DNA of 64,000 nt, taken from contig JBAZKA010000005.1 in NCBI GenBank assembly GCA_041651015.1, forward strand, positions 1,326 to 65,325. The letters are read 5' to 3'. Below, piece after piece: positions 97 through 47,295 of this stretch (position 1 is its first letter; each line of letters starts with the position of its first letter). A program made the position numbers and the translations under genes. The notes below the pieces were generated by a model, which saw nothing but the letters and a program-made list of their open reading frames with translations, was not told the origin of the DNA and did no database searches. The DNA is from Patescibacteria group bacterium (GTDB taxonomy: Bacteria > Patescibacteriota > Patescibacteriia > Magasanikbacterales > GWA2-37-8).

Positions 97-1278
97 TTAT
101 TTTAAGATATTTAGCCACTCCCTCCCCGCTTTGTCCCAAGAATATTTTTTCACTTGTTCCAATCCTTTTTGGATATGCCAGTCGCGCAAATTTTTATTAT
201 TCAAAAGTTCATTCATGGCCAAGGCGAGTTGTTCGGGCCGAGTCGGGTCAATCAGATACGCGGCCGAGCCCGTGACCTCGGGTAAAGATGAACGATTGGA
301 AGTAATGACGGGCGTGCCTAGGGACATGGCCTCCAACACCGGAAAACCAAAACCTTCATACAAACTCGGATAGACAAATAAATCCGCAGAGGCGTAAAGC
401 GCGTCTTTGTCTTCGGGCGCGACAAAATTTATAAAATGAATTTTGTCGGCCAAATTGGAATTTTTCGCGCGTGCGTAAATTTCTTCATTTTTCCAACCCG
501 GCGCGCCGGCGATAACCAAGTGTTCAACTGATTGATTTTTCGCGCGGTATGTTTCAAAGGCTTCAATCAAGCCGATGATGTTTTTGCGTGGTTCAATCGT
601 GCCAAGGAATAAAATAAATTTTTCCGGAAGATTGTATTTTTGTTTGATGTCTGTGTTGCGTTTTGGCGTGTCATTCCCGACCTGATCGGGAATCCAGTCG
701 CACCGTCCTGGATCCCCGCCTTCGCGGGGATGACAAATACCAACCCCCGGATAAATCACTTTAATTTTTTCCGGACTGATTTTGTAATAATTCACAATAT
801 CGCGCTTGGTGTTTTCCGATGGGGTGATAATCACATTGGCGCGTTCACATTGATTTTTCGGACGAATGGCTTTGTGCCAAAAAAATTGTTTGCGTGTGGA
901 AAATTTCGGAAACAAGTCAAAAGAAATATCATGAATGGTCAAAATGTATTTTATTTCCCGCGACAGGGCGGTAAAGTTCAGGTTGGGGGAGAACCATAAA
1001 TCAATTTTTTCGGGGAAAACCTTATCCAATTTAGGATATTTGAAAACACCGAGGCCAAAGTTAAAAAATTTATTCGGGATATGCGAGTCAATAATTTTCA
1101 CGTTGGGAAAATCCCATTTTGGAATGTTGGCGGACACATCTCGGCTGGAATTGTAAAACAAAAAATATTGATTGTTTTTATCAAGATTAAAAATCGCATT
1201 CAGAAGTTCATAAGTGTATTCGCCGACTCCCGTGCGCGGGGCGGTCATGAGCGGGCGGATATCAATGCCGATGTTCAT
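97..1278 (-). CDS. Glycosyltransferase family 1 (GT4-type) with an in-frame GC-rich insertion
   Basis: C-terminal GT1/GT4 motif EGFGFPVLEAMSLGTPVITSNRSSLPEV and Rossmann-like layout. The conserved ...IKVIYPGV-//-KYNLPEKFILFLG segment is interrupted by about 27 aa (ICHPREGGDPGRCDWIPDQVGNDTPKR) encoded by a GC-rich palindromic element. Confidence 0.8.
   Translation of the reverse strand: MNIGIDIRPLMTAPRTGVGEYTYELLNAIFNLDKNNQYFLFYNSSRDVSANIPKWDFPNVKIIDSHIPNKFFNFGLGVFKYPKLDKVFPEKIDLWFSPNLNFTALSREIKYILTIHDISFDLFPKFSTRKQFFWHKAIRPKNQCERANVIITPSENTKRDIVNYYKISPEKIKVIYPGVGICHPREGGDPGRCDWIPDQVGNDTPKRNTDIKQKYNLPEKFILFLGTIEPRKNIIGLIEAFETYRAKNQSVEHLVIAGAPGWKNEEIYARAKNSNLADKIHFINFVAPEDKDALYASADLFVYPSLYEGFGFPVLEAMSLGTPVITSNRSSLPEVTGSAAYLIDPTRPEQLALAMNELLNNKNLRDWHIQKGLEQVKKYSWDKAGREWLNILK
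688..770. repeat. GC-rich palindromic element copy A, in-frame inside the GT4 gene
   Basis: Hairpins attcccga-cctga-tcgggaat and tccccgc-cttc-gcgggga. GC composition contrasts with the AT-rich host gene. Related to copies at 8494, 20193 and 24008. Confidence 0.5.
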
Positions 1279-1304: not shown

Positions 1305-2426
1305 TTATCCTATCAAACTCGTTTGGTTCATTTTATTTTGGAAATCATCCCAATAATCATTGACCGCGCGCGTCATTTTTTCCTGGAACACGGCCGTGTC
1401 AAATTTTTTCGCGTGTTCGCGGATGGCCGCTGCGTCCCAATTGGCATGATTGAATTTCAATATCGTATCCAAAAGCGATTCCCAATTTTGTTTTTTAAAA
1501 AACACTCCGGTCTGGTTTTCCAAAATCGTTTCGGTCGCGCCACCGCTCTCGTAAGCGATGACCGGCCGGCCCGAAGCCATGGCCTCCACCGCGGTAATGC
1601 CAAAGTCCTCAATCTGCGGATTGATAAAAGCGCGGGCGCGGGACAGTAATTTTATTTTTTCTTCTTCGGAGATAACGCCGAGAAATTCAATATTCGGCCG
1701 GGCAATGTTTTTTAATTTTGTCAGCTCCGGTCCGTCGCCGAAAATTTTAAGCGGTTCTCGTAAACGGTTAAAAGCGGCGATTAGCAAATCAAATTTTTTG
1801 TAAGGCACCATGCGTCCACCCGAGACAAAATAATCCTCGATGTTGCTTGAAGTCATGAATTTATTAATTTCAATCGGCGGATGTATGATTGTGGACTCAC
1901 GGCGATAATATTTGCGGATTCTTTGTTCCACAGTTTTGGAATTGGCGATAAAATGGTCCACGCGGTCCGCGCTCATTTTGTCCCACAGGCGCAACCTGTG
2001 TAATATATTTGGTAAAAATGCCTTTACCGCCGGCGACTGATTTAGCTCGGTGATATATTCATTGGAATCAGCCCAGAGATAGCGGGGCGGGGTGTGGCAA
2101 TAAGAAATGTGCAAGGTGCCGGGCGGGGTAATGACGCCTTTGGCAAACGCGCTGGTGGAGGATAAGACCACGTCAAAATCGCGCAGGTCATGATGCTCGG
2201 TCGCGGATGGCATCCAGGGCAAATACCATTGAAAAGCCGAGCGGACAAATGGCATCTTGGCCAAAAACGATTCTTTGATTTTTTCTTGGTCAAAATAATT
2301 TATTTTTTTCTTATCATGAAACAAAACAAAAATTGGCGCCTCGGGCCAAGTTTCGTGGAGGGCTTTGAGTACTCGTTCGGCCCCTCCGTCTTGTGATAAA
2401 TAATCGTGGACTAATGCTAAACGCAT
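1305..2426 (-). CDS. Glycosyltransferase family 1 (GT4-type)
   Basis: Start chosen at internal MRLALVHDY (ATG at 2426). Shows the N-terminal GT4 substrate-domain pattern and C-terminal GRPVIAYESGGATETI motif. The longer ORF to 2507 would run into a repeat. Confidence 0.8.
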   Translation of the reverse strand: MRLALVHDYLSQDGGAERVLKALHETWPEAPIFVLFHDKKKINYFDQEKIKESFLAKMPFVRSAFQWYLPWMPSATEHHDLRDFDVVLSSTSAFAKGVITPPGTLHISYCHTPPRYLWADSNEYITELNQSPAVKAFLPNILHRLRLWDKMSADRVDHFIANSKTVEQRIRKYYRRESTIIHPPIEINKFMTSSNIEDYFVSGGRMVPYKKFDLLIAAFNRLREPLKIFGDGPELTKLKNIARPNIEFLGVISEEEKIKLLSRARAFINPQIEDFGITAVEAMASGRPVIAYESGGATETILENQTGVFFKKQNWESLLDTILKFNHANWDAAAIREHAKKFDTAVFQEKMTRAVNDYWDDFQNKMNQTSLIG

Positions 2427-2475
2427 ATAATCGATGCAAATATACGAATTTATTCGAATAATACGAATGTGCGAA
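2411..2475. repeat. Distal half of the 85-bp AT-rich promoter-region repeat
   Basis: rc(2411-2475) contains gtattattcgaataaattcgtatatttgcatcgattat, identical to 6461-6500. It abuts the GT4 start codon. Confidence 0.7.
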
Positions 2476-2859
2476 TCATTCAAAATTAGTTTTGTTTTTT
2501 GTTTCAATTTTTATTATTCTCATGGGTTTGAGAAAACGGCTCCTAAAATTTATCAGCATTCCAAGTTTGTAATTATTTAGTTGTAAATATTTTTGTAGCT
2601 GGTAGTAATCATTTTTGATAATGAATGGTTTTGCTTTTAATTCCAGAACAATTTTTTCATCGACCACGAAATCCATAATATTACCGTATTCTGTTTGTCT
2701 CGCTTCTCTTTTGAAAGCAATATTATTTTCTTTAAATTTCATTTCAAGTAGATCCCCGTATTGTTTTTCTCTACAGAAACGGCCGAGTTCGTTATGAACG
2801 GCATAACAAATTCCGTTTATTTTGTATGACAACTCCGGATAAATAATTTTCCCCTCCAT
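2476..2859 (-). CDS. GxxExxY-family protein (PD-(D/E)XK-like small protein often found in IVS or mobile insertions)
   Basis: ELSYKINGICYAVHNELGRFCREKQYGDLLEMKFKE matches the GxxExxY signature. The 127-aa ORF sits exactly inside an interrupted copy of an 85-bp repeat. Confidence 0.75.
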   Translation of the reverse strand: MEGKIIYPELSYKINGICYAVHNELGRFCREKQYGDLLEMKFKENNIAFKREARQTEYGNIMDFVVDEKIVLELKAKPFIIKNDYYQLQKYLQLNNYKLGMLINFRSRFLKPMRIIKIETKNKTNFE

Positions 2860-2860
2860 A

Positions 2861-2912
2861 GAATATTATTCGTATAATTCGCATGCATTCGTATATTAGT
2901 ATCGCGTTTCTA
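2861..2912. repeat. Proximal half of the 85-bp repeat
   Basis: rc(2861-2912) = aacgcgatactaatatacgaatgcatgcgaattatacgaataatattc, versus 6423-6460 gacgcgatgctaatatacgaacgcatgcgaattatac (2 mismatches). Confidence 0.7.
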
Positions 2913-4328
2913 CCAGGCTCCTTTTCTTCGGATTACCACAAACGGCGTCTTTATTAAAATAATCAAATCAATCAGTAGGCTCCAATTTTCAATATAAAAA
3001 GCGTCCAATTTTACTTCGTCTTCAAAACTCAAATCACTGCGCCCGGAAATTTGCGCCATGCCGGTGACGCCCGGCTTAATCGCCAAAACGATTTTGTGGT
3101 GTTTGGCGTATTGGGCCACCTCGCGCGGTTGATGCGGGCGCGGGCCGACCAAACTCATTTGCCCGATGAACACATTCCAAAATTGCGGGATTTCATCAAG
3201 GCTCCACTGGCGGATAAACCGTCCGAATTTCGTCACCCGCGGGTCGCCTGCGATTTTGTAAACCGGCCCCTCTTTAATGTTTTTCTTGGCAATCAATTCA
3301 GCTTCTTTTTTCAAGGCTTCGTCGCCGGACGCGCCAAATTGCAGGCCGGTGCAATCCTTTTGAAACATGGAACGGAATTTGTAAGTAAAGAATTTTTTGC
3401 CATAAGCGCCGACCCGTTCGTTTTTGTAAAACACCGGCCGTCCGGTTTCGCATAAAATAATAATGGAAACCACTAGATACACGGGCGATAAAATTATCAG
3501 CAAAATTAAACTGCCAATAATGTCAGATGCGCGTTTAAAAATCCTACCCCAGCCGGTCAAGCGCGTCCGGCGTAATTCAATAATCGGCACACCGGCGATG
3601 GTGGTGACAGTCATGTTGGTGGAGATTGAAGCAAACAAGTCGGCTGAATATTTGAAAGAAATGTTTTGGTCATTGGCAAAATCCACTGCTTGCAAGGCCC
3701 CGTCCTCATTGGCTTTTGGGTCGGTAAAAATAATTTCGTCCGGCTTGAGCGCGAGGATTTGTGTTTGGGTATTGGCGTCAAAACGGGAAAATGTGCCCAC
3801 TAATTTAAAACCGGAATTGGCGTGGCGTTTCAAGGAATTGGCAATCACTTCGGCCACGGCTTGCGAGCCGACCACAACGGTCCGGCGCAGTCCCACGCCA
3901 AATTTATAAAATAATTTTTTTAGCCCGAGCACGAGCATCCGGCCGATGAAAACATAAAGGATGGATAATAACCAGCCGGCGAGTACGAGGAATCGGGAAT
4001 CAAATTTTTGCAAAGTAAAAAATACGTAAATGGTGATGCCGGCAAATCCCGTGGAGCAGGCGAAAATTATTTTCGGCAAATCGCGCGCCATTTTTCTTTG
4101 TCCCGAGGTATTGTAGAGTCCGGCTAAAGCAAAAATTAAAACCCAAACTCCGGCCACGAACATTACAATCGGCCAGAATTTGTCCCAAGAAATATTAAAA
4201 AGCACGGGCCTGATGGCGCGCATGGATTCGGTGAAGCGGAGCGCGTAGGCGGTAAATCCGGCCAGCATTACGGCCGTGAAATCAATCGGTACTTGCGCCA
4301 CGGCAAAAGTTAGTTCAAATTTTTTCAT
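2910..4328 (-). CDS. Polyprenyl-phosphate sugar phosphotransferase (bacterial sugar transferase, WbaP/CpsE-like)
   Basis: Multiple N-terminal TM helices. C-terminal bacterial sugar transferase domain [44 protein letters not shown]. Confidence 0.85.
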
Positions 4329-4336
4329 ATTGAAAA

Positions 4337-5125
4337 TTATTTCCGGTTTTCGTTTAATGCTTGAACGAGCTTTTCGCGAAGAAAATTTATTTTTTCCTTG
4401 TTGATGACGCTGTGTTTCTCTGTACGTTCGGTGTGATTGTCTAATTGAGATAAAATTTCTTCAATGATTTTATTTCTGAGTGGATGGCTATCTATATCTC
4501 CCTCCATTTGTTTTATGTTGGATTCGTCAGTTTCTTTTGAGAATCCTTTATTTTTGAAAGTTATCAGATCGTTAACCATAACGATAAGTTCGTTTGCGTC
4601 TTCTTTGGAAAAATTCACAGTAGCGAGCGCGGTATCAATAGCACAATGTTTTTCCGGATCAATCGGCGATTGATAATATTTAATACTCAGCGGTTCGTTC
4701 GCTCGCGTCAACGGCTTGTCGTTCGCTGAATCCACAATTAAATTTAATGCGAGTGGTATCTCCTCGCCATCGTCATAGACGATAACCAAATCCACTCCGT
4801 TTAATTTCTGGTCGTACTTGCTTGTTTGTCCGGTGTTGGCATCTTTGCCAAACCAATTAAATTTTTGGCCAAGCAAAAATACCGTTTCTCTCAATGTATC
4901 TTTCAAGATGTCATTGTATTTTTTTGCCTCGGCTTCCGATCTCTCCATATCAGTGACGACTTCACCTTTGTCATAATATGCGCCGATAAATTTACGCATA
5001 TTGACTTGTTCGGCTTCGTTTTCGGAGGTGAGATTATCAAAAATATGACGCAAAGTGGCAGCATTGCGTACCTCGTTCTTAATTGATCCATTTTCGTCCG
5101 ATGTTTGGAAACGACTCTCGTTCAT
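4337..5125 (-). CDS. Hypothetical acidic protein
   Basis: 262-aa ORF in line with flanking genes. No motif recognised. Confidence 0.5.
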   Translation of the reverse strand: MNESRFQTSDENGSIKNEVRNAATLRHIFDNLTSENEAEQVNMRKFIGAYYDKGEVVTDMERSEAEAKKYNDILKDTLRETVFLLGQKFNWFGKDANTGQTSKYDQKLNGVDLVIVYDDGEEIPLALNLIVDSANDKPLTRANEPLSIKYYQSPIDPEKHCAIDTALATVNFSKEDANELIVMVNDLITFKNKGFSKETDESNIKQMEGDIDSHPLRNKIIEEILSQLDNHTERTEKHSVINKEKINFLREKLVQALNENRK

Positions 5126-5206
5126 ATTTTTATGATAATTTAGCGTGATTTGCGCGTAAGATAATTTTAGGTTATTTTTGAGGCAAAGTCAATATAAAAT
5201 AAAAAG

Positions 5207-5248
5207 CCCCCCACCACTTTTTCCACGAGGCAAAAGTGGTGGGGGACG
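5207..5248. terminator. Rho-independent terminator hairpin (bidirectional)
   Basis: aaagccccccaccacttttccacgaggcaaaagtggtggggga with flanking A/T tracts, just after the 3' end of the minus-strand HD gene. Confidence 0.6.
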
Positions 5249-5252
5249 GGGG

Positions 5253-6341
5253 TTACCAATTTAGACCGGGGTCGGTCATGTCAATCGGGGTGTTTTTTAA
5301 GAACTCAATCAGCTTGGGGTCAAAAGATCCTCTGGCGATCGGTATCCACTGCTGTTTGTATCTCGGGGCGAGAATTCTTTCCAAGTCGCGTTCAGTGGAA
5401 AGAGCGATGAGCATGGACGGATCAACCTCGGGAATAGCGTCTTGCAAACGCGCGTAGATCTTTTCTATTATCTTCCAAAGCTCGTCTTCGCGATTGATGA
5501 CGTGGTAAATGTCGTCGTACATGATTTTGTACATCGCGAGGAAATTTTTTGCCGCTTCGGAACACTCAAAACTGGCGTAACCTTTTTTCGCCGATTCCAA
5601 GACAAGCGCGTTGATGCAGTTTTCTATCATGGCCTCGGCTGAACCACCAAACCAGCGGTAAAGACGAAAAAGATTTTTGTTTTTCGTTGGCAGGCTAATT
5701 CCTTTGGCCAAGAAGTAAGCAATGTCTTTGGCCACAAATTCTATTTTGTCGGCGAACATCACGATTGTCCACTCGGGCGGGCCGGTCCTTGCGACGAGCG
5801 GACCGCCGTTGCTGGTGTGGGCCAAGATGCCGCCAAAAGTCAGGTTGGTGAGCGGGATGCCGCGCCCATTGTTGTCTATCTTTTGCAGGACAATTGGGCC
5901 GTTAGTACTATGATGAAATTTGCGTCCGAATTTTTCCGAGAATGTCTTTTCGGTGCTGTGTGCGTATGGAACATGGCCGGAATCGTGGCAGATGGCGACT
6001 ACTTCGGCGAGCATCTCGTTCAAGCCGAGCAACTGAGCGATCCTTTTGGCGATGTAAGCGACTCCGATGGTGTGGTCGGCGCGAGTGCGGACGTCTCCCG
6101 TAAGAAAATATGCCGGTATCACTTGCGTTTTATCCACGAGACGCCGGAAGGCCGCGCTCAAGGTGATAATCAGCAAGTAGTCAAGCGCGAACGGCGAGAT
6201 GTTGCGCGGAAAGTTTGTGAGCGTCGCGTCGGCATTGGGATGACGACGAGCTTTGCTTTCATCGGTGCGTAAACTTTTTAAACACCCGATAACATTATCA
6301 AGTGGTTGTGGGTTGTAACGAGCGGCTGTTTGCTTTCCCAT
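5253..6341 (-). CDS. dGTP triphosphohydrolase-like HD-domain phosphohydrolase
   Basis: SAAFRRLVDKTQV ... RTRADHTIGVAYIAKRIAQLLG ... AICHDSGHVPYAHSTE matches the dGTPase family (H...HD, HDxGHxPFxH). Confidence 0.75.
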   Translation of the reverse strand: MGKQTAARYNPQPLDNVIGCLKSLRTDESKARRHPNADATLTNFPRNISPFALDYLLIITLSAAFRRLVDKTQVIPAYFLTGDVRTRADHTIGVAYIAKRIAQLLGLNEMLAEVVAICHDSGHVPYAHSTEKTFSEKFGRKFHHSTNGPIVLQKIDNNGRGIPLTNLTFGGILAHTSNGGPLVARTGPPEWTIVMFADKIEFVAKDIAYFLAKGISLPTKNKNLFRLYRWFGGSAEAMIENCINALVLESAKKGYASFECSEAAKNFLAMYKIMYDDIYHVINREDELWKIIEKIYARLQDAIPEVDPSMLIALSTERDLERILAPRYKQQWIPIARGSFDPKLIEFLKNTPIDMTDPGLNW

Positions 6342-6422
6342 TGTATCTTCCTCCTTTTGAGGTGAATGAACGTTTTGTTTGCTTAAACCCTATCAAAAAT
6401 ACAGTAAATGTCAAGTGTTTGA

Positions 6423-6503
6423 CGCGATGCTAATATACGAACGCATGCGAATTATACAAATATTTGTATTATTCGAATAAATTCGTATATTTGCATCGAT
6501 TAT
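6423..6503. repeat. Intact copy of the 85-bp AT-rich repeat
   Basis: gacgcgatgctaatatacgaacgcatgcgaattatacaaatatttgtattattcgaataaattcgtatatttgcatcgattat. Both halves match the split copy at 2411-2912 in inverted orientation. Confidence 0.7.
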
Positions 6504-6505
6504 GA

Positions 6506-6534
6506 TTGACAAAAACCCCAAAATGTGCTATAGT
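6506..6534 (+). promoter_or_regulatory. Sigma70-like promoter for rnpB
   Basis: TTGACA (6506-6511), 17-nt spacer, TATAGT (6529-6534), immediately upstream of the RNase P RNA. Confidence 0.6.
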
Positions 6535-6540
6535 AGTATG

Positions 6541-7048
6541 GTTCATTAAAAAGCAATCGCTCGTCTTCGTCCTACGGACTACGCCGAGCAAGCCTTCTTT
6601 TCTAAGTGGGGCTTGCCCGCCGAAGCCCGAAGGGCGAAGGCGGGAGGAAAGTCCGAACACGCGACGTTAAATCGTAAAGGTAGCGGGTAACGCCCGTCCG
6701 TCCGCCCTAGGCGGACGAGAGGTGCGAGCAGAGACGTCTTTGGTTGAAAAGCCAAAGAGAGCAAACCCCAAGTTTGTGTTAATCATAAATGAGCTTAGCT
6801 TCAATCAAGGGGATAAAAGATTGAAGGTGAAACGGCAAAATCCTTACCTGCGTGCAAGAGCAGAGTTCCGTCCGCCTAGGCGGACTGGATAAAAAGTTCG
6901 CTCGCTTGATCGTGTAGAGCAATTTATGCGACAGAGAAATGATTGCCCCGGCTTCGTCCTGCGGACTACGCACGGGCAAGTGTCTTGAAAAAGATGAACT
7001 TGTCCGGCGAAGCGCAGCGGAGTCGGACAAAATTCGGCTTATTATAAT
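6541..7048 (+). ncRNA. rnpB: RNase P RNA (bacterial type A), unusually long (about 500 nt)
   Basis: Universal motifs GGAGGAAAGTCCGAACAC (P4 5' strand), GGGTAACGCCCG, AGAGAGCAAACCCC, AAGGTGAAACGG, and 3' GACAAAATTCGGCTTAT (compare ACAGAACCCGGCTTATCG). Ends before the 7057 terminator. Confidence 0.8.
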
Positions 7049-7056
7049 GAACAAAA

Positions 7057-7084
7057 AACAACTCCCGCAAGGGAGTTGTTTTGA
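7057..7084 (+). terminator. Rho-independent terminator of rnpB
   Basis: aacaactcccgcaagggagttgtt followed by ttgatttg. Confidence 0.7.
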
Positions 7085-7140
7085 TTTGATAAAAATTCGG
7101 CGTATCGTCTCAAAGTGAGACGATAATTTTTTGCCAAAGT

Positions 7141-7959
7141 TTATCGCATTTGTTTTCGCCGTGTAAGCGATAAATAATTATTTTTACTGACAATTTTTTT
7201 TCCTGTTTCTTGTTCCATTTTTCGTCTGGCCAATCCTGACACACCGCCGCCACGCTTCGCGGTTTTTTTGTTTTCCGTAAGCCCAATGGGATTTTCCACT
7301 TTTGTAATTTCTGTTGTCGCCGCTTCACCGAGCATGGAAAATATCAATTCCAAATCATTCATGTGATCGCGTAAATTTTCTCGTTTCAATCCTTTGAGTT
7401 TTTTATGCTGGCTTGGAGTCAAACCAAACGCGGCTTTGGCGATTTCCGCGGTTAAAATCTCATATTCTTTTTTTTCTTTGACGCCGTGTTTGTTCCACTC
7501 GTCGGTTAAAGTTTCGCGAATTTCAATTCCGCGCATTCGTTTTTCAATCCAGCTATCGGGGTAGCCCTTTAATTTGTAAAGCATACGAGTGCGTTTGGCG
7601 CCGAGCTCGGGATTTTCAATTTCTTGAACGCGTTCATAACCGACTTTGGCCAGCCAGCGTTTGAACGGCTCGGCTTTGGGCGAGGGGATTGATTGGATGA
7701 TACGAAAAATACCTTCGGTGTTGGCACAGTTCATTTGTTGCCGTCCGCCGGCTGTGGCCACCCCAAGGGTATGGACAAATTGTCCATACCCTTTGGACAG
7801 TTCTTCGTCTCTGAGTCGTAGTTTGTTAATATAATCCTTTGGGTTTGGCGTGTCTGTTAACGCCGAGATAATATCTTCCACAACAAACCACCATTCCTTT
7901 TCAAATAACGTTTTGCGAATTTCCTTTTTTTGGAAAAGCGCGATTTTTGTGTCCTCCAT
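7141..7959 (-). CDS. DinD-like DNA-damage-inducible protein (Bro-N/KilA-N-type N-terminal domain)
   Basis: C-terminal KKLKGLKRENLRDHMNDLELIFSMLGEAATTEI...GGGVSGLARRKMEQETGKKIVSKNNYL parallels E. coli DinD (RKGLKKNQKILDHMGSTELAANLF...GRKVRQTIQELGGTMPEEL). Confidence 0.6.
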   Translation of the reverse strand: MEDTKIALFQKKEIRKTLFEKEWWFVVEDIISALTDTPNPKDYINKLRLRDEELSKGYGQFVHTLGVATAGGRQQMNCANTEGIFRIIQSIPSPKAEPFKRWLAKVGYERVQEIENPELGAKRTRMLYKLKGYPDSWIEKRMRGIEIRETLTDEWNKHGVKEKKEYEILTAEIAKAAFGLTPSQHKKLKGLKRENLRDHMNDLELIFSMLGEAATTEITKVENPIGLTENKKTAKRGGGVSGLARRKMEQETGKKIVSKNNYLSLTRRKQMR

Positions 7960-8118
7960 AGCTATGTTAGTTATTGTTAAATAAATACGATGAACGTTTG
8001 TTCACCTAAACATTATACGCCAAAAAATGGAGATGGTAAATTGTGGAGTGTGGACAATAATTTGACGAAAAGTTAATGGGGGGGGGTAGAATATAGGGGT
8101 TATAATATATACATTAAC

Positions 8119-8415
8119 ATGAAAAAAATTATTGCAGGCATCGTCGTATTATTTGTTGTAGTATATTTTTGGCAATATTATATTCCATATTCTATTCCGC
8201 GAGTTGACGAGAGGGATTTTCCAACGGGTTCTTCTACTATGGTATGCAAATCAATATATTCCGGACGATTAATTTATTCGAATAATCCTATTAATCCGAC
8301 GGTTGATCAGAAATTTTACGATAGTCGTGGAAATTTATTAACTTCAGAACCGAAGTTTATCAGGTGTATTTTTACTACAGTGGAGCATTATAACTCGATT
8401 GTAACGTCAAGATAA
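8119..8415 (+). CDS. Hypothetical small membrane-anchored protein
   Basis: N-terminal TM helix. Preceded by TTGACG...TAGAAT. No homology recognised. Confidence 0.3.
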   Translation: MKKIIAGIVVLFVVVYFWQYYIPYSIPRVDERDFPTGSSTMVCKSIYSGRLIYSNNPINPTVDQKFYDSRGNLLTSEPKFIRCIFTTVEHYNSIVTSR

Positions 8416-12802: not shown

Positions 12803-13024
12803 TTAGAAGAACAAACGCGCCAACGTAAAGCCAAAAAACAGAACGCCCAGCACGATTGTGGCGTAAAAAAGAATTTTATCCAAGCCGCGTTTGGTGCTGT
12901 AAACATTGGAACTGCCGCCAAACACACCGCCCACGCCACCGCCTTTTTGTTGGAGCAAGACCACGATGATAATAAGTACGGACAGGACAATTTGTATGAT
13001 GTTGAACAGGGTGTTCATAACCAA
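12803..13024 (-). CDS. secG: Preprotein translocase subunit SecG
   Basis: LLQQKGGGVGGVFGGSS motif between two TM helices. Confidence 0.85.
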   Translation of the reverse strand: MVMNTLFNIIQIVLSVLIIIVVLLQQKGGGVGGVFGGSSNVYSTKRGLDKILFYATIVLGVLFFGFTLARLFF

Positions 13025-13219
13025 AATAGATAAATAAAGTATGAAAAAAGTATATCATTATTTATGTTTAGTGTCAATGGAGACGAATGGTGAAGAATGA
13101 CAAATATCCAATATCCAATGTCAAATGAATGACAAAGTTCAAATGACAAAATGCCGTAAATTTGACATTTGATATTAATAATTGTGGATATTATTTCGTA
13201 AATATGATAAAATATTTAT

Positions 13220-14004: not shown

Positions 14005-15471
14005 ATGCGCAAAATAAATTTCGGAAAAATTTTATCAGCCATCACACTTAGTATTTTATTTTTATTGCCGAATACGGTTTTGGCCGCGGAAATTAAAACG
14101 GAATTTAATCCCATGTGCTGGACCGAGCAGGAATGCAAAGACAAGAGAACAGAGTTGTGGGGCGCCGAGCGCGCGAATGGCGGTTGGTTGGAAAAAGAAG
14201 GCAAGGAATGTAATAAAATCGGTTGGGGTAAATGTTTGGCCGGCAATGTCACTGAGACGCAAATTTCATTCGGCGGGACGAAATCTTTTTCCAACCTCGG
14301 CGAATATATAAAAACGATTTATAATTATGGTTTAGTGGTAATTGGAATTTTGGCCGTGATAATGATAGTGATGGCCGGCGCTCAATGGATAACTTCGGCC
14401 GGCAGTTCCGAGCGCATCACCCAATCCAAGAAAAGAATCTCAGGCGCGATTATCGGACTTTTTATCGCCTACATGTCATATATTATTTTGAAAAGCATCA
14501 ATCCCGCGACCGTCAATTTGCGTTTGCCGCAAGTTTATCTCATCAAATCACAAGTGTTGCCGTCCAAATGGTGCAAGGATGTGCCAAAAAACGGTGGCCA
14601 GGACACGAAGTTTGCTTTAGCTGCTGATAAGAATAATCAAAAGAGCAAAGTTGAGGCCACGGGTAGCGAATCGCCTTGGCTTGTTTACTCCAACGATAAT
14701 CCGTATTCAGTGGATTTTTGGTGCGGCAAAAGATATTTCGTCAGTGGCGCAGATGCGGATACAACTTGTTTGGGGGATAGGTGCGATTTTGGGTATGTCT
14801 GTTCTAATTTTGAACCGCCTGACTCAAATAATCCTTACCATTGCATCGTGGGAACGATCACCGGGGAGGTAAAAAATTTAAACAGCGGGACATTTGAAGG
14901 CCTTGTGTCGGATAATTGGGAAGATGTTGATGGAGAAGAATTGTATCTTGTTTGTCTTGGCACGGGTGAGTCGGTGGAAGTTGACGCTGAAACCAGTGAG
15001 TCGGGCGTGATAAGCAACAAACAACAATATACAATCTCGGCCTCAGCCGAAGATTTGAAAGACGCGGTTGCAGAATGTGGTGGTGAGACAAAGGTCAGGG
15101 GCGGATTTATGAAGTTGGATTTTACACCCAGCGTGTCGGGAAATATTCTCTCCGAAGAGAGTCATTTGATTGGAAAAGACGGGAAAGATATTGCCGGCGG
15201 TTTACTGGTTGATGCCGTGGTGGATTATCCCGCCATCATCAAAACTGAGGCATTGATACCGTACGCGTTAATGAAGGCCGGAACCACGGTTGATGTTGAT
15301 GCCAAAAGTATAAAGATGTGGGAAAAGATGACGGAATCATTTTTGCAAACGTGGAGCGTAATTTTCACTGATGATACGGTTATTTCCGCGATGAAAGACA
15401 AATTAAAAGATGTATTTGGTTATTATAAGGATTACATCGTAGTTCAATATTCTGATAAAGTCTCAAAATAA
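14005..15471 (+). CDS. Secreted Cys-rich protein with internal VirB2/TrbC pilin-like two-helix hydrophobic module
   Basis: Signal peptide. The segment IKTIYNYGLVVIGILAVIMIVMAGAQWITSAGSSERITQSKKRISGAIIGLFIAYMSYIIL resembles the T4SS pilin hairpin. Cys-rich flanks. Confidence 0.5.
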   Translation: MRKINFGKILSAITLSILFLLPNTVLAAEIKTEFNPMCWTEQECKDKRTELWGAERANGGWLEKEGKECNKIGWGKCLAGNVTETQISFGGTKSFSNLGEYIKTIYNYGLVVIGILAVIMIVMAGAQWITSAGSSERITQSKKRISGAIIGLFIAYMSYIILKSINPATVNLRLPQVYLIKSQVLPSKWCKDVPKNGGQDTKFALAADKNNQKSKVEATGSESPWLVYSNDNPYSVDFWCGKRYFVSGADADTTCLGDRCDFGYVCSNFEPPDSNNPYHCIVGTITGEVKNLNSGTFEGLVSDNWEDVDGEELYLVCLGTGESVEVDAETSESGVISNKQQYTISASAEDLKDAVAECGGETKVRGGFMKLDFTPSVSGNILSEESHLIGKDGKDIAGGLLVDAVVDYPAIIKTEALIPYALMKAGTTVDVDAKSIKMWEKMTESFLQTWSVIFTDDTVISAMKDKLKDVFGYYKDYIVVQYSDKVSK

Positions 15472-15606
15472 TACCTGTTTTGAATCAATACCGTGTAAGT
15501 TATACCACTGTCCTTGACACCCCCTTGAAAACATGTTAAGATTGGACATCAAAAAATTTCACCCAAAACGTTTGATTTTCGGTGAAAAATGTCTTCTTAA
15601 CAAAAT

Positions 15607-18435
15607 ATGCCGGACAAAAATAACGCCAAAGATAAAATTATTATCAAAGGCGCCAGAGTGCACAACCTCAAAAACATCAACATTGAAATTCCGAAAAATA
15701 AATTTGTCGTCATCACCGGCTTGTCCGGTTCGGGCAAATCTTCGCTCGCTTTTGACACCATTTACGCCGAAGGCCAGCGCCGTTACGCCGAATCATTATC
15801 TTCTTTTGCGCGCCAATTCATGGAAGTGCGCGACAAACCCGATGTGGATTCCATTGAAGGGTTGTCGCCGACTATTGCCATTGACCAGCGCGTTTCCACG
15901 CAAAATCCTCGTTCCACCGTTGGTACGGTGACCGAGATTTATGATTATTTGCGTTTGCTTTTTGCCCGCGCCGGCGATCAATTTTGTCCGGACTGCGGGG
16001 TAAAAGTAAATGTTTTTACAGCCGGAGGAATCGCGGAAAAAGTCCGCAACCTCGCTCGCAAGGGCGAAGTTTTTATTTTATCGCCCTTGGCGCGAGACGA
16101 ATTTGTGGATGCCAAAATGTTGATTGAAAAAATTGAACAGTCGGGTATGGACACGGTTTGGATTGATGGCGAAGTTTTGAAAATCAATGACATTGCCGAT
16201 TTTGATTTTGAACCCAAGACCAAATACCGCGTCGGTCTGGTGGTGGATAAAATTGAAGATATTAGAAAACAAGACCCGATGAAACCGGTGGAGATTGCTC
16301 TGGATTTATCCAACGGCCTGGTGGAAATTGTCTACAACGGAAAAATTGAAACTTATTCCACTTTTGGACTTTGTCCGTCTTGCGGCAAGATGACGCCGGA
16401 ACCGGATATCAGAAATTTTTCGTTTAACAGCCCGATCGGCGCCTGCCCGCGTTGTACCGGCCTCGGCATTACCATGGAAGTGGACCCGGATTTGGTCGTG
16501 CCCAATCCGCGCCTGACTTTGGCCGAGGGTGCCATTCAGCCATGGACCCGCATTACCGGCAATCAGGCTTGGTATCAAAAAATGCTTTCCGCCGTGGCTG
16601 ACAGGCATAATTTTTCTTTGGATATTGCCATTGGCGATTTGCCCAAGACTGCCTTGGAAATAATTTTAAAAGGTACTGGCAACGAGCCGTATGAAGTGGA
16701 AAATAAAAAAGTTAATTTTCCGGGTGTGATGGAAGATCTGCGCGCGCGCCATTTGGCCACTGATTCCGAATATGTGCGCAAGGAAATTGAACAATACATG
16801 CGCGAACAATTGTGCAGTGTCTGCCATGGTAAACGCTTGAAAACAGAATCGCTCGCGGTCAAAGTCAATGGCTTAAATATCGCCGAAGTGGCGGGTTTGA
16901 ATATTGATGAAGGCTTGGCATTTTTCAAGTCAATCAATACCGGCAATGGGAAAAAAGATAAGACTGACGGCCGGTCTATGGTGGTCGCGCCGGTGGTTAA
17001 AGAAATTATTATTAGATTGGAAAATTTATCCCGAGTTGGTTTGGGTTATTTGAGCATTGACCGGGCCATGAACACGCTCTCCGGCGGTGAGGTGACGCGC
17101 GTGCGTTTGTCCACTCAGCTCTCGTCCGGCCTGACCGGCGTGGTATATATCCTGGATGAGCCGTCGGTTGGTTTGCATCCCCGCGATATCAAAAAATTGG
17201 TAGACACTCTGAAGTATTTGCGCGATCTCGGCAACAGTGTGATTGTGGTAGAGCATGATGCTTCCATTATGAACGCGGCCGACTATATCATTGATGTTGG
17301 TCCGGGCGCCGGTCTTTATGGTGGAGAAATTTTGGCCAAAGGCACACTCGCGGAAATTAAAAAATCCAAAAAATCATTGACTGGAGATTATTTGTCCGGC
17401 CGGGTAAAAATAAAAAGAGTTTTACCGCGCCAAAAAGCCGACAAAGTGACAAAAAAAATTCGCGTGGTCGGCGCCAAGGCGTTTAATTTGAAAAATGTCA
17501 CCGTGGATTTTCCTTTGGAAAAATTGGTTTGCGTCACCGGCGTGTCCGGATCGGGCAAATCAACTCTAGTGGTGGAAATTTTGTCCAAAGCCTTGTCCAA
17601 ACATTTTTATCGGGCCAAAGACGAACCGGGCGCGCACAAATCCATTGAAGGCATGGATAATGTGGACAAAGTAATCGCCATTGATCAAACGCCGATTGGA
17701 CGCACTCCGCGTTCCAATCCCGCGACTTACACCGGCGTGTTCACTCTCATTCGCGATTTGTATGCCGCTTTGCCCGAAGCCAAGATGCGCCGTTTTGACG
17801 CCGGTAAATTCAGTTTCAATGTGAAAGGCGGGGGACGCTGTGAGGCCTGCTCGGGCGATGGTTATGTCCGCATTCCCATGCAATTTTTGGCTGATGTGTT
17901 TGTCACCTGCAATGAGTGTAATGGTTCGCGCTATAACCGCGACGCCATGGAAATTCATTATCAGGGTAAAAATATTTCCGATGTTCTGAACATGACCGTG
18001 GAAGAAGCGTTTAAATTTTTTGTCAGCGACCGCCAGATTTCGCAAAAGTTAAATGTCTTGCGCGACGTCGGCCTCGGCTATGTCCGTTTGGGCCAGCCGG
18101 CCACCACGCTTTCGGGCGGTGAAGCGCAACGCATCAAGCTGGCGACCGAACTGGCGCGCGCCTCCACCGGTTCCACTTTGTATATTTTGGATGAGCCGAC
18201 CACGGGTTTGCATTTTGAAGATATCGGCCGCTTGCTCATGGTCTTGGAACAATTAGTCGCCAAGGGCAACACCGTTTTGATTATTGAACACAACATTGAC
18301 GTGATAAAAAATTGTGATTGGATAATTGAGATGGGTCCGGATGGCGGTAAGAACGGCGGTGAACTAATTGCCGAAGGGCCGTTGGAAAAACTCGCGAAAA
18401 ATAAAAAATCTTGGACCGCGAAATATCTTAAATAA
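15607..18435 (+). CDS. uvrA: Excinuclease ABC subunit A
   Basis: Two ABC ATPase modules ([18 protein letters not shown]), zinc fingers [24 protein letters not shown] signatures. Confidence 0.95.
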
Positions 18436-21010: not shown

Positions 21011-21085
21011 TGGTGCGCCTGGATGGATTCGGACCATCGACTTACACCTTATAAGGGTGCCACTCTACCGCTGAGTTACAGGCGC
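21011..21085 (-). tRNA. tRNA-Ile with apparent UAU anticodon (encoded CCA)
   Basis: rc = GCGCCTGTAACTCAGCGGTAGAGTGGCACCCTTATAAGGTGTAAGTCGATGGTCCGAATCCATCCAGGCGCACCA. Anticodon loop CTTATAA. Good cloverleaf. Confidence 0.6.
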
Positions 21086-44100: not shown

Positions 44101-46341
44101 ATGTGTTTGATTAATGCGCCGACCAACAGAAAGCGCTCCACTGCTTATCCTACTTTTAATATGGGAGGTGCCTCAATGCAGGCGGACTGGGGAAATTCCA
44201 CGGGTAGTCTTCAAGGTCCGAATGGTGAGGCGATTCTTTATTCCGGCTCAGCGACTGTTGTTTATAATTCTTTGGAAAATAGCATCGTCACCGGATGTTG
44301 GGACACGAGTGCTAATGCGTTTGATGCTATTTGGGGGTTGTCTATGTCAGATGGAGACGATTCGCAAGGTAAATATTGTCCAATAAATAAAAATACATTG
44401 AAAGAAGCCGGGTCAAATCTCGCTCGGATCAGTTTGCCGGTCGGGCAGACATATTTGCAGAGGAATGATATTGAGAGAATAGATGTTTATCTTGATAAAC
44501 GGTACTCTGGCGACGGTGGTGATGGTGCTGGTTGTAGTGACGGTTGGGTGAGTTTTTACAATGATTTACTTGACGAGAACGAGGATCAATCTTTTATCGT
44601 TAAAGAATGGTTTAGACCGGGTTGTACAAATTCAAGCTGGAGAAAAAAGAGTTTTGGTAGTACCCCTTATTCATTATTAACCGACTGGTATTCGTGGCAA
44701 TGGGAAGGGGGCAATCTCGACGGAGATGGTAATTGGGTTAAAGATAGCAGTATTGTGTACAATCTACAAAACGATACCTATGCGTCCATAACACAAAACA
44801 ATGATTCAGGCAATGGCACTGGTATTCGGATTATATTTGATTCCAAAAATAATTTCAGAGGTATCTGGGTTGATGGCGAAGATAACGCGTCTGGTAGTAC
44901 CGATATGGGATTTTTCTTTGTCATTACTCTACGTGATGGTCGTTGCGCGGAACAATTGCAAATTTCCGATGAAGATGATGAATATTTTGGTTTTAAACCA
45001 TTTACCGGAAGACTAGCACTTGGAGACTTATCTGTCGGTGGAGACTGGGCGGAGTTTGGATTGTCTGCCACTCGCACCAAAGAGATGGATAACCCAAATT
45101 ATGGTTTAAATAGTGATAGCTCACCGCGCACTCTTATCAATCCATTTGTTACGTTATTGGGCAAGTATGGTGCTAACGCCCACAGTCCGCAGGGTATCTC
45201 CGATCCAGATACGGCCATGACAATTCACGCTTCAGATTATGACGCCGGTGTGCCGTTGAGCGTAATGAGGGTGCAAGATGCACCAGCAAGCGAGTACGCG
45301 AGATTTTATGTTGAAAAAGTTAGTGACTGTGCGGCGAACCCGGGTGCACCATATTGTCAGATGCTTAAGCGAATGTTTGCTCGAGTTTATTCGGATAGAT
45401 TGCTGGTGCGCGTGTCGGACGGTGTTTACGCGTTCAAAGATGATCCGACGACATCCGATGGTACAATAGTGGTAAAAAACGGGACATCGGTAGATGACTT
45501 TGACTCTACTGCCGACGCTGCCAATCCGGCAACCGCAAAGACATTAAAATTAATTCTTTATCCGCCACGTGTGGCGGCTCCAACATCTGCCGGTTACGAG
45601 ATAGATGCAGTTGCAGTTAACGGACAAACATCCGGCAATGTGTACTTGGCATCTGGTGCGACTGCGGCGATTCAATTTTACGCGTGGGCTTCACCCAACC
45701 AAATGCCACTGCGCCGTGTCGCGGTCAGAAAAGGCGATGGCACGGATCCAGTAGCGGTTGAGAGCGAAAGTTTAAGTAATAAAAAACCGTCATGCAATAC
45801 AAAATTTTGTGATTGCAATCGCAATACGGGTACAGGTGGAGATGAATTTTGTATTCAGGACCTTAGTGAATTGATGCCTTGTAGTAATGATAGTGATTGC
45901 GACGGATTAACGAACAACACCGTATGCTCAGGCTCTTCCGCCTCCGGTTATACGACCTTTGGCTCGACTTCGGACACCGGCTGCAAAGCCGAACCCTATG
46001 ATTTCATTGTGGATTATTCTTGCCCAATGGGTGGCAGTGAAGGAGCAAAAGTTTATCCATCATCCGCCTCCACCTACGGCATAAATTGGAACACAGACAT
46101 TGTCGCCAATTTCGGTGATGTTCCTTACGTTTGCGCCTTCCAACCCAAAGTTCAGGTGTTGGATAATTGGGGTTGGTGCACTAGTCGAGCGCCAGGTACA
46201 AACGGTGGATGTAATTATTCTTCAAATGAATATGTGAATGGATACGGGTGTTATGCGGAGGATGTATATGATTATTGCGCTTTAAGTAAATCACAACCGT
46301 GGGTACTATATGGTGGTTACGTGGTCGTAGTGCCAATGTAA
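38158..46341 (+). CDS. Giant (2727 aa) Cys-rich extracellular/surface protein with polymorphic C-terminal module
   Basis: Uninterrupted 8.2-kb ORF. N-terminal signal/anchor (FGLSAILSIFVFVTIFGSLFFAP). Hundreds of Cys spaced as in disulfide-rich repeats. The C-terminal 125 aa are homologous to the downstream orphan ORF 47885-48259. Confidence 0.85.
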   Translation: MLRNNQRFMFFNTKKFGLSAILSIFVFVTIFGSLFFAPRPARAQMDANITNAFRAWQVKGTVQEVKQTLKEKAQFMFMTALMNGLNYFANKIAYDMGVWLASGDWGQGPFSSGKSFGSYMAQVAGDSLGEMLGSLSEDLGLNLCDLPDLRLDLALQLGFHFAYNEPKPKCSWQQLRAAYNPENVYSKYASREGLADRIGLGVNVKDTDMGIWFKSKETIDAYTEEQVAGASGEDARGEGISAMTEIISGKQVTPAAAMKQEMLAQTPSKQQEGRAADTRSMTNAALQKGATTVALNAVSTFVNTLLGTVVNNFVTKGMLPGGKTICNPGLSITGVGWNQCADSDSSDTLAANYYTSGSETDNRRAAQELFSELLAPKITTLENYDLATNMAECSEDNKSPDACVIDQSFMQILQQADLGDALTIKQAMERGLLHGDWKLISPNNAEETDKWTCAEEAYCYRNIKFLRQARILPVGFEMAAYIANASTPPSLSDVVNGFYDESSAYYHLINPQWVIKMPKMRCASYAYGAVAQDGVRVQECVDLQHCVGYNKDGTCQSWGYCMKEKPVWKFDAGYCDSIYSTCKAFTGADGDASYLTRTLDTTECNSDNVGCARYSRDKYYVNSSTVDWYSQLAVYNATDETFTNTGIHFNKSVSTCSAENDGCSAFKLASDNSTLLYLKKAPDYLGCYDADPSTAANSLALLNKKISNGVQWPMTLSGLNLIQPQDKKACANYAQVCLPEEVNCNYYTASYTGEKIPAKFTPAVVSDGLVTWNDQCDAVCNGYAAYQEMPSNYSSGQNLSYIIPSSGNSCIASQSGCTAFTNLNANSGGMEQKEYFSYLRLCALPDQTKQKNYTVYESSESGGYSIKTYTLVKNDSNNGPKQIFRDADEYAELAPLCSQTAYEAGTADPDCHQFIGDDASKYYAFLSKTIIATDQCTPYRLSSPELIALTSTDLRCAYDYDYYGVDRRAGSSTVEFKSNACYYMGTTVGTNGAGDTRTCNSNVESCRAYKGNAGNNVRLLLNEDFENADLTNWGVSASSASTVTIATSTESTQIDGHSLRVNVKTNSSAATAYAQLNGLPVTKGKAYTISFWAKGSAALKSVSLASADFEGSFTDSEINSSDVWKYYSFGPLNYNGSATTSILYLPLSATGGATQQLFIDNIRLTEVADYIYLVKNSLSVNALCDSDTSDNLPGEALGCTAYSDPLKNMFYLTGFNYLCREAAVGCTAVLDTYNTPDDPNAQAYNVWIAGASGGTASATVGGETFTCQVPTGETGCYTDIMGYTAAQLVAAGNVHLTSSTIYIPPDTTTSTPIYLVANQSATCKAENLGCEVLGKSTVSASGLSYKVDGILVVHYETFEETAVLNNPALYSDTLCKNEEAGCSAWTSGDSSYYFKKPNATCTYKTDKFISIEPPAAGVEIKSVNLKANSIGWVMQDTGICVRNELSSYGIVGSSIFGIGGFILNSGSHYMGRYCATDADCVIGTSTGTCKYVNQVPCYPASRKPSGEYQLWSSGNPVKYYNYVGTCPQEQSGCTEYVDHSSSDNNVCAMTGEVCTDDSDCETEGDTCVANEDSAYYLIDNEKLQAQEAACNGQVSQAEGCALLDNTNNPNKYWNTTSSYALSTSNDENLVTPVDKGNANDANTILKVKHDRECAEWAYCDFKQTYVDSETNETASRCYHLGVCQQASSAVGVSGRCAEGGVVTGSWLGKDKVLDKNYYQSLYSSWDSIDLSGYSIPFTYQIPDLRVRNVDDTNRLVYVTTTALCTDETDNGSACGSGGACYNGECLFNYIGPGNSVTSSRSISCRSYPEDSSPFSTSVLSDNTVWGDGGSSGGHLMSAIYKTGFENTNLCYDDSGELTNNKCDCSYDKFQTSGGDIFTQVGRSTASGYVCSGGSYNGKDCDGSDDIDTCGTGGTCSKVNSVSVMTGWQGYCMEKDLRQTINGTSNHRCLTWWPLELAPGTSDIWATDPSAGYEVGETDDRYMCLINAPTNRKRSTAYPTFNMGGASMQADWGNSTGSLQGPNGEAILYSGSATVVYNSLENSIVTGCWDTSANAFDAIWGLSMSDGDDSQGKYCPINKNTLKEAGSNLARISLPVGQTYLQRNDIERIDVYLDKRYSGDGGDGAGCSDGWVSFYNDLLDENEDQSFIVKEWFRPGCTNSSWRKKSFGSTPYSLLTDWYSWQWEGGNLDGDGNWVKDSSIVYNLQNDTYASITQNNDSGNGTGIRIIFDSKNNFRGIWVDGEDNASGSTDMGFFFVITLRDGRCAEQLQISDEDDEYFGFKPFTGRLALGDLSVGGDWAEFGLSATRTKEMDNPNYGLNSDSSPRTLINPFVTLLGKYGANAHSPQGISDPDTAMTIHASDYDAGVPLSVMRVQDAPASEYARFYVEKVSDCAANPGAPYCQMLKRMFARVYSDRLLVRVSDGVYAFKDDPTTSDGTIVVKNGTSVDDFDSTADAANPATAKTLKLILYPPRVAAPTSAGYEIDAVAVNGQTSGNVYLASGATAAIQFYAWASPNQMPLRRVAVRKGDGTDPVAVESESLSNKKPSCNTKFCDCNRNTGTGGDEFCIQDLSELMPCSNDSDCDGLTNNTVCSGSSASGYTTFGSTSDTGCKAEPYDFIVDYSCPMGGSEGAKVYPSSASTYGINWNTDIVANFGDVPYVCAFQPKVQVLDNWGWCTSRAPGTNGGCNYSSNEYVNGYGCYAEDVYDYCALSKSQPWVLYGGYVVVVPM

Positions 46342-46378
46342 ACAAATGATCAATGATTGAGGTAAAAAACGAATTAAC

Positions 46379-46410
46379 CCACGCAAGAAATTGCGTGGGT
46401 TTGGTTTTTG
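46379..46410. terminator. Terminator (member of a repeated terminator family)
   Basis: cccacgcaagaaattgcgtgggtttggttttt. Near-identical unit at 48291-48323. Confidence 0.7.
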
Positions 46411-46460
46411 TGGAGCTGTGCACTCCTTAGGTAGGACCGATCGCTTTGCGCGGTCGGCGG

Positions 46461-47003: not shown

Positions 47004-47295
47004 GGTACCCTCCCCATTGCCAACCCATCGGGCCGGCGTCAATCCGCGAGCTGACCGAAGTCAAAGCGCGGACTTTGTTGCGAACCTTTTTTGTTTCGCC
47101 CCCTCATGGGGCAGAGAAGCGCGGCCTAACGAAATGACAAATTTCCAATTTCCAATGTCAAATCAATGCCAAAATCCAAACGTCAAATTTTTAAATTTTG
47201 AGCTTTGGATTTGATTGAATATTTGTCATTGGATATTTGACATTAAGCAACACTTTTCTACCTCATAAGAAAGGCGTCTAATCCTACCTGTATTG

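Follow-up and report, generated by a model that had tools for sequence, protein, structure and literature searches.

Miniature inverted-repeat transposable elements (MITEs) of bacteria include the Correia/NEMIS, RPE and ERIC-type repeats, and homing endonuclease genes, either free-standing or intron-borne, include nucleases of the PD-(D/E)XK type such as I-Ssp6803I. Intervening sequences (IVS) in 23S rRNA carry small open reading frames (ORFs) for four-helix-bundle IVS proteins (TIGR02436), and the ends of Tn7 and Mu consist of multiple phased transposase-binding repeats, with Tn7 also encoding a PD-(D/E)XK nuclease, TnsA. Here we describe a repeat-bounded gene of the GxxExxY/PDDEXK_3 family in a 64,000-nucleotide stretch of DNA (the window; contig JBAZKA010000005.1 of assembly GCA_041651015.1) from an uncultured member of the Patescibacteria, part of a contig of about 68 kb in a metagenome-assembled genome. 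The family comprises 5,981 clusters at 50% identity (E ≤ 1e-3) and was listed as 'Unknown' in a 2012 survey of PD-(D/E)XK proteins; in the literature searches available to us, no description was found that ties GxxExxY, PDDEXK_3 or TIGR04256 to repeats. On the best-supported reading, the locus belongs to a small selfish element that exists both with and without a coding sequence, and its logic most resembles that of REPIN-RAYT systems and MITEs. As REPIN-RAYT systems are portrayed in three publications, they have in common with this element a small gene flanked by inverted repeat copies, gene-less palindromic doublets that are far more numerous, intergenic, hairpin-forming and free of target duplication, and particular repeat types matched to particular protein clades (PMC5581495, PMC8266576, PMC3733652).

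The gene-bearing copy is a block of 486 nt on the minus strand (2424-2909; arm, GxxExxY gene, arm) that extends from the stop codon of a sugar-transferase gene (2910-2912) to the start codon of a GT4 glycosyltransferase gene (2421-2423), both of them cell-wall genes. Its stop-side, or upstream, arm (2860-2909, minus strand) reads ACGCGATACTAAT ATACGAAT GCATGCGAAT TATACGAAT, then AATATTCT, then ATG, with unit starts spaced 8, 10 and 9 nt and with 5 nt between the sugar-transferase stop codon and the CGAT of the arm. The ORF that follows (2476-2859, minus strand) encodes a GxxExxY/PDDEXK_3 protein of 127 amino acids with a D63..E73-x-K75 nuclease motif, and is succeeded by a start-side, or downstream, arm of four units (2427-2475, minus strand), within which an arm hidden Markov model (HMM) matches at 2432-2468. 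The gene-less counterpart, 3.5 kb away at 6422-6503 on the plus strand, consists of a stop-side-type arm (6422-6461) abutting a start-side-type arm (6462-6503) around a palindromic centre, ACAAAT followed directly by ATTTGT, and its arms are collinear with those of the filled copy. The 64-kb window holds this one GxxExxY gene and one doublet, and no further GxxExxY paralogues were found within it.

The original prediction had viewed the gene as lying within one copy of an 85-bp repeat whose intact copy lies upstream of rnpB, on the strength of 38/38 and 33/35 matches. Both figures are exact: pairwise alignment of the reverse complement of 2427-2464 with 6466-6503 gives 38/38 identities and that of 2873-2907 with 6422-6456 gives 33/35 (38/41 if extended to 2867-2907 versus 6422-6462), as opposed to the less than 70% of mere AT similarity, and an independent repeat search returned the pairs 2427-2481/6449-6503 (55 nt, 89%) and 2867-2907/6422-6462 (41 nt, 93%). 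The region is AT-rich and made of short repeated units, as would suit a chance, low-complexity similarity or an assembly artefact. That explanation has a negligible probability in view of the 38/38 and 38/41 matches and of the 17-mer CGATGCWAATATACGAA, which, with up to three mismatches, occurs four times in the window, exclusively at the four arms, against an expectation of 0.51, with none of 100 shuffled sequences reaching four. Furthermore, over 190 independent contigs, drawn from many studies, carry the same arms, and an independent ENA record assembles the locus identically. The low-complexity explanation was accordingly discarded.

The two halves that flank the gene are also inverted repeats of each other (2432-2468 versus 2868-2904, 84%), and the intact copy in turn forms an imperfect palindrome (6425-6464 versus 6459-6498, 85%). 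Since the halves are mutually inverted, the filled locus is a gene between terminal inverted repeats (TIRs) of about 40 nt, and 6422-6503 represents both arms back to back. Each window arm contains four phased 8-10-nt ATACGAAT-like units: a terminal GCGATRCNAAT is followed by ATACGAAT-like units whose starts are 8, 10 and 9 nt apart, a spacing identical in all four arms. Across elements the arms are about 40-50 nt long with three to five phased units of 8-10 nt, for which the consensus is GCGATRCNAAT-ATACGAAT-nnATRCKAAT-nATACNAAT.

Orthologous junctions, obtained through close homologues of the downstream GT4 protein, reveal what was inserted. In three relatives the distance from the sugar-transferase stop codon to the GT4 ATG is only 4 nt (L200, GT4 87% identical; TAAaaatATG), 3 nt (L201, 78%; TAAattATG) and 2 nt (L202, 74%, with synteny as far as RNase J; TAAatATG), and the arm HMM has no match in any of them even at E ≤ 10. 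Because these junctions are 2-4 nt long and repeat-free, the whole arm-gene-arm block is the insertion, and the simplest event, judged from these comparisons, would be that all 486 nt between the stop codon (2910-2912) and the ATG (2423-2421) arrived without a preceding resident repeat, with a two-step route, doublet first and gene second, as a less simple alternative that the junctions leave room for. The proposal of a discrete insertion therefore holds, the gene being part of one that L200, L201 and L202 lack, but the inserted DNA is the whole 486-nt unit and not about 410 bp placed into a resident repeat. Comparison of the window junction with the empty sites reveals no evident target-site duplication. 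The closest relative, L199 (GT4 90% identical), carries at the same sugar-transferase/GT4 junction an unrelated 150-nt TIR element (654-802; GTCATTGCGAG...CTCGCGATGAC, its start also written GTCATTGCGAGCCCCGAAGGGGC), so that this junction has been a landing site repeatedly.

The doublet, which had been stated to lie upstream of rnpB, is located between a dGTPase-like HD gene and RNase P RNA, 3 nt before the TTGACA-17-TATAGT promoter (6506-6534, plus strand) that precedes the RNA and falls outside the element. Its description as a promoter-region repeat could not be sustained. The rnpB promoter aligns with that of L202 only from the -35 hexamer onward, L202 having a GC-rich hairpin and no doublet at the orthologous position, and family-wide most gene-less doublets separate a stop codon from the ATG that follows it. 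A scan of 2424-2909 and 6422-6503 detected neither sigma-70 hexamers nor a GC-rich stem with a U-tract terminator, and a promoter or terminator role of the repeat was rejected on these grounds. Searches for known RNA families at the repeat gave only sub-threshold miRNA-hairpin matches (6419-6503) and nothing at gathering score. A search for the empty site of the doublet by way of HD-gene orthologues was defeated by the rarity of that protein, whose sole match is 58% identical and on a 1.3-kb contig.

The architecture seen in the window is conserved around GxxExxY genes. We collected 80 loci from GTDB genomes, representing many classes of Patescibacteria with 52-65% protein identity. When the 150 nt upstream were compared with the 150 nt downstream, the best inverted match had a median of 14, versus 8 for direct and 7.8 for shuffled matches (81 GxxExxY loci), and in nearly all loci the flanking sequence carries window-type arms (CGATGCNAATATACGAAT...). 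According to the arm HMM, the gene is immediately preceded by an arm on the plus strand and immediately followed by one on the minus strand in about 65 of the 80 loci. The start and stop codons of the ORF often lie inside arm units, and the gene shares its direction with the gene upstream in 63 of 68 cases and with the gene downstream in 48 of 61. The two halves of the "85-bp repeat" are thus real, but they are the TIRs conserved around GxxExxY genes across Patescibacteria, for which reason the intact copy is more aptly called a version of that element without the gene.

Gene-less doublets appear to outnumber the gene-bearing copies about tenfold. The arm HMM identified about 20 bystander doublets within 4 kb on either side of the 80 loci, from which we estimate roughly 8-20 doublets for each gene-bearing copy. 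A pattern scan of metagenomes recovered at least 117 stretches; the matches listed include 63 doublets, with a median length of 97 nt, and five different elements that contain the gene. The pattern is biased, matching the flanking arms of just one of 79 gene-bearing loci, and the 5% gene-bearing estimate derived from it was downgraded in favor of the one from bystander elements. Many pairs of doublets are 90-99% identical over about 100 nt, including the loop, in unrelated flanking sequence (as in L094 versus L115, both from a single metagenome, L083 versus L086, and a pair on contig L133), and the doublets therefore have undergone duplicative spread. The loops themselves are 0-35 nt long and variable in sequence. 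Doublets resemble the arms of a gene-bearing copy more when they share its contig (0.865) than when they do not (0.717; p 1e-5), and the window pair, at 0.93, is typical in this respect. Viral carriage of the arms was not detected, with 0 matches in IMG/VR and none by tblastn against phage genomes.

Two variations on this layout were encountered. At L009 (1574-2223) a GxxExxY gene lies between two complete doublets (+- gene +-), with a 72-nt direct repeat, and not inside one doublet; this reverse arrangement of the arms is reminiscent of a RAYT gene between two REPINs. On L082 and L120 a solo arm (123-159 of L082) passes into coding-like sequence of the CCA-adding/poly(A) polymerase type (IDPFNGQEDIKNKIIRTVGNP...), and the arm may have been inserted in or beside a truncated gene.

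The elements are polar with respect to the neighboring genes. Their outer arm ends are close to a stop codon on one side (mode 2-3 nt) and to an ATG on the other (2-8 nt), and 51 of 112 unique elements display the complete order of stop codon, element and ATG. Position 19 is G in the stop-side arm of 41 of these 51 and T in the start-side arm of 33; both window copies conform, the window stop-side arm (2860-2909) having G at position 19. The two arms are therefore not equivalent. Among 113 unique elements no direct repeat of 2-5 nt exceeded the shuffled expectation at any offset, and hence there is no sign of target-site duplication. A TATATT hexamer is present 12-18 nt before many of the downstream ATGs. 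In L095, L098, L113, L127 and L133 doublets lie directly upstream of rpmJ (ribosomal protein L36, MKVRASVK), followed by a conserved ttagcgtaagcg before the ATG.

The palindromic character of the doublet translates into strong predicted RNA hairpins, with -30.1 kcal/mol for the plus strand and -32.1 for the minus strand (z scores of -4.6 and -6.8), and the predicted fold of the 501-nt transcript is closed by an arm-arm stem. Base pairing does not, however, appear to be what selection maintains. The left and right arms are no more similar within an element (0.687) than between elements (0.688), the invariant motif positions are the same in both arms, and the variable positions match less often than expected by chance (0.25 versus 0.37 at position 7, 0.31 versus 0.48 at position 15, and 0.22 versus 0.41 at position 19), so that covariation in support of an arm hairpin is lacking and the variable positions are anti-correlated. 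As within-element identity is not raised and these positions are anti-correlated, the constraint seems to be on the motif, that is, on the unit sequence and on two differing ends, and not on pairing. Such a pattern points to recognition by a protein.

A candidate for such a protein is the product of 2476-2859, which, as had been predicted, is a GxxExxY protein (TIGR04256, 72 bits versus a cutoff of 35; PF13366, 73.6 bits versus 22). The D..ExK residues are invariant and the PD-(D/E)XK structure model is confident; the window protein is predicted to be a minimal PD-(D/E)XK nuclease with an intact D..ExK site. The 127-residue protein has no match to another family, and its gene is the only ORF between the arms, with no DDE or other classical transposase. 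GxxExxY yielded no PADLOC match as part of a defence system, and no solved homologous structure was detectable by sequence.

Arm unit type follows protein clade, even inside one genome bin. The loci with ACGAAA-type arms (L055, L062, L066, L067, L068 and L076) cluster in the protein tree. In one metagenome-assembled genome (MAG) the arms of L021 are of the ACTAAT type and those of L071 of the CTACAAAT type, a CTACAAAT-type doublet being present on the contig of L021 as well, and contig L033 encodes two divergent GxxExxY paralogues, each with its own unit type. The association extends beyond the Patescibacteria. In Bacteroides finegoldii, Bernardetia and Treponema, GxxExxY genes occupy slots of about 55 nt between co-directional housekeeping genes and are flanked by inverted arrays of another unit, CACAGAGG or ACACGGATTCG; those of B. 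finegoldii and Bernardetia are bounded by inverted CACAGAG(G) arrays, the Bacteroidota genes thus having the Patescibacteria layout with a different unit (CACAGAGG). A 24.8-kb stretch of B. finegoldii (L206, NZ_OY725952.1) has one GxxExxY copy, a gene-less doublet, a pair of about 140 nt and a solo arm, all built of the unit CCACAGAGGACNCAGAGG, with elements composed of inverted CCACAGAGGACNCAGAGG arms at 5405-5580, 12841-12901 and 15188-15649. This replicon is labelled a plasmid, yet it carries housekeeping genes.

Each of the systems described at the outset shares part of these properties. The resemblance to REPIN-RAYT is the most extensive, but the GxxExxY protein is a PD-(D/E)XK nuclease of about 125 residues whereas RAYT is an HUH/Y1 (IS200/IS605-type) transposase, the arm is a phased array of three to five short units whereas REP is a single hairpin with a GTAG/CGTC head, and the elements lie exactly at stop/ATG junctions. 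MITEs and their parent insertion sequences have in common with the element the TIRs, the excess of short non-autonomous copies over coding ones, insertion between genes or within operons and hairpin-forming transcripts, but the GxxExxY element lacks a DDE transposase and target-site duplication, and its TIRs consist of tandem units with an arm sequence conserved across a whole phylum. As with a homing endonuclease gene, its small nuclease gene may interrupt a sequence that also occurs uninterrupted (a putative target, the doublet at 6422-6503), and spread in the absence of target duplication would fit repair-mediated copying; unlike those genes, it has no apparent intron or intein features and lies between genes, and its 'target' would be a dispersed repeat with a variable centre that was not present at the ancestral window site. 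The IVS of 23S rRNA are similar in having a small ORF within inverted repeats able to form a long transcript stem, with RNase III-type excision as a plausible, predicted route to host tolerance, but the GxxExxY element is located between protein-coding genes and encodes another protein family, and no rRNA is present in the window. With Tn7 and Mu it shares ends made of several inverted units resembling binding sites and a nuclease of the restriction-enzyme fold within a mobile element, but it has no DDE partner equivalent to TnsB or MuA and no target duplication, and is shorter than 0.5 kb.

On the basis of these data we favor, with a probability of roughly 0.55, the interpretation that a compact mobile or selfish element is represented at 2424-2909 by a copy in which a gene for a PD-(D/E)XK nuclease of about 125 residues lies within TIRs of about 40-50 nt, and at 6422-6503 by its gene-less, MITE- or REPIN-like form. 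The suggestion that the family rides on small mobile or intervening elements is borne out insofar as the gene belongs to a small repeat-bounded unit. Under this interpretation, the unit would have landed in the spacer of 2-4 nt between the sugar-transferase stop codon and the ATG of the next glycosyltransferase gene. The nuclease would recognize the repeated arm units, probably as an oligomer on phased sites, and cutting at or between the arms would allow the arm-bounded DNA to be copied into new intergenic junctions by host repair or recombination, with no target duplication; gene-less doublets would be mobilized or homogenized in trans. Both the action of the nuclease on the arms and its role as the driver of their spread are inferred. 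In the transcript, arm pairing would bring the upstream stop codon and the downstream ATG together at the base of the stem, and it is perhaps because the RNA stem rejoins them in this way that insertions are tolerated in tight operons; any effect of the stem on expression would follow from the predicted fold. Several observations weigh against this interpretation. The doublet-to-gene ratio is only rough, in part owing to the metagenome pattern that so rarely matches the arms of gene-bearing loci, and there are just two copies of the element within 64 kb of the source genome. Without target-site duplication the process is not classical cut-and-paste transposition. Shared host ancestry could account for some of the correspondence between arm type and protein clade, and the same-genome cases depend on MAG binning. 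Recurrence upstream of rpmJ could reflect a host or co-opted function, an old insertion or a hot spot.

Two other accounts have to be considered alongside. In one, the doublets, whether mobile or host-functional, would be primary, and GxxExxY would be a free-standing homing nuclease that cuts empty doublets near the centre, with repair of the break from a filled copy then introducing the gene, a doublet at the GT4 junction having come first and been invaded later. This would agree with the great excess of doublets over filled copies, the near identity and collinearity of the two window copies (left with left, right with right), the invariably central position of the gene and a lack of target duplication that suits repair-mediated copying, and PD-(D/E)XK homing endonucleases such as I-Ssp6803I do exist. 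We nevertheless consider it rather unlikely: no relative has a doublet-only GT4 junction, the sites being either empty or occupied by an unrelated element, and the variability of the doublet loops in length (0-35 nt) and sequence leaves no conserved central target. The location of ORF start and stop codons inside arm units in many lineages suggests that gene and arms have long evolved together as a unit, and a separate mechanism would still be required to move the doublets. The other account regards arms and doublets as host regulatory sequences, such as operator arrays, RNase III stems or terminator/stabilizer hairpins, and GxxExxY as an ordinary embedded gene whose nuclease has no part in the spread. 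The strict confinement of the elements to the space from a stop codon to the following ATG, the fixed polarity relative to transcription, the strong predicted hairpins, the recurrence upstream of rpmJ in several contigs and the TATATT hexamer before many downstream ATGs could all be understood in this manner. The absence of the elements from the GT4 junction and the rnpB promoter of relatives, however, indicates that they are not needed for expression there, the arms have neither a sigma-70 consensus nor a U-tract terminator, and arm complementarity is not maintained. Since near-identical copies in unrelated contexts testify to duplicative spread, and the cross-phylum link of one nuclease family with lineage-specific arm units would be left unexplained, a purely regulatory role seems improbable. 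The compact mobile element remains the preferred interpretation.

The genes adjoining the element, both on the minus strand, are the GT4 glycosyltransferase directly downstream (1305-2423) and a polyprenyl glycosylphosphotransferase, the sugar transferase mentioned above, directly upstream (2910-4328; TIGR03025, 372 bits). The downstream half had been said to run straight into the GT4 start codon, and in fact it ends 3 nt before the true ATG (2423-2421), which is supported by the N-termini of orthologues; a gene caller had placed the start further upstream, at a TTG (2483), so that the called gene crossed the arm (2424-2483) and overlapped the GxxExxY stop codon. RNase P RNA (6603-7048, plus strand) was identified by a match to RF00010 (49.4 bits, E 4.4e-14) that is under the gathering score of 100 and is low due to large insertions, so that the RNA is wholly missed at the gathering threshold. 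The genes around rnpB (4337-8415) are absent from the syntenic L202, where rnpB directly adjoins the sugar transferase. They encode a 262-residue protein without family match, the dGTPase-like HD protein (PADLOC dGTPase, 71 bits), a Bro-N protein (PADLOC candidate PDC-S13, 364 bits) and a 98-residue ORF, and may constitute an accessory or defence islet with the doublet at its edge.

Other repeats in the window are distinct from the arms. A second GT4 gene (97-1278, minus strand) contains at 600-720 an in-frame insertion of about 23 residues (GICHPREGGDPGRCDWIPDQVGND; ...IPAKAGIQ... on the opposite strand) in the inter-domain linker, which is absent in L201 and L202 and replaced by a different insert at the same place in L200. 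It has the appearance of another palindromic repeat family, unrelated to the first, whose members insert in frame. Within a set of duplicated segments (D1, D3-D5, D10 and D11; 45947-50029) there are two arrays of 12-nt tandem repeats about 1.9 kb apart (46717-46957 and 48667-48895), as if a gene cassette with repetitive coding sequence had been duplicated in tandem. Another dispersed repeat (AATGACAAATATCCAATATCCAATGTCAAATG...), at 13096-13152 and 47133-47244, is found in direct as well as inverted orientation (D7, I3). At 21011-21085 a tRNA-Ile is predicted that has the anticodon TAT, an uncommon means of reading AUA.

For the GxxExxY/PDDEXK_3 family, which is large and without known function, these results provide a concrete cis-element. 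They also have practical consequences, as the arms break assemblies, many GxxExxY homologues being on contigs of 1-2 kb, and mislead gene callers, as exemplified by the GT4 start lengthened through an arm; many of the 'GxxExxY' cluster representatives of 250-650 residues may be read-through artefacts of stop-free arms. GxxExxY genes paired with hairpin repeats are found in many bacteria and appear to form a kind of small mobile element that has not been described. Extending this idea, we tentatively propose that GxxExxY defines a cross-phylum class of very small mobile elements, in Patescibacteria, Bacteroidota and probably others, whose sole protein, a nuclease of about 125 residues, would recognize the phased 8-10-nt units of its own arms and spread itself, along with a much larger population of doublets, into stop/ATG junctions with no target duplication, by a transposition or homing chemistry unlike those of the DDE, HUH, serine and tyrosine classes. 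Throughout the Patescibacteria, whose genomes are tiny, operon junctions are filled by polar palindromic doublets, which may have been co-opted there as polar hairpins. If the nuclease does mobilize the doublets, the element would represent a new minimal type of mobile element and, like REPIN-RAYT, a new pair of a repeat and its dedicated enzyme.

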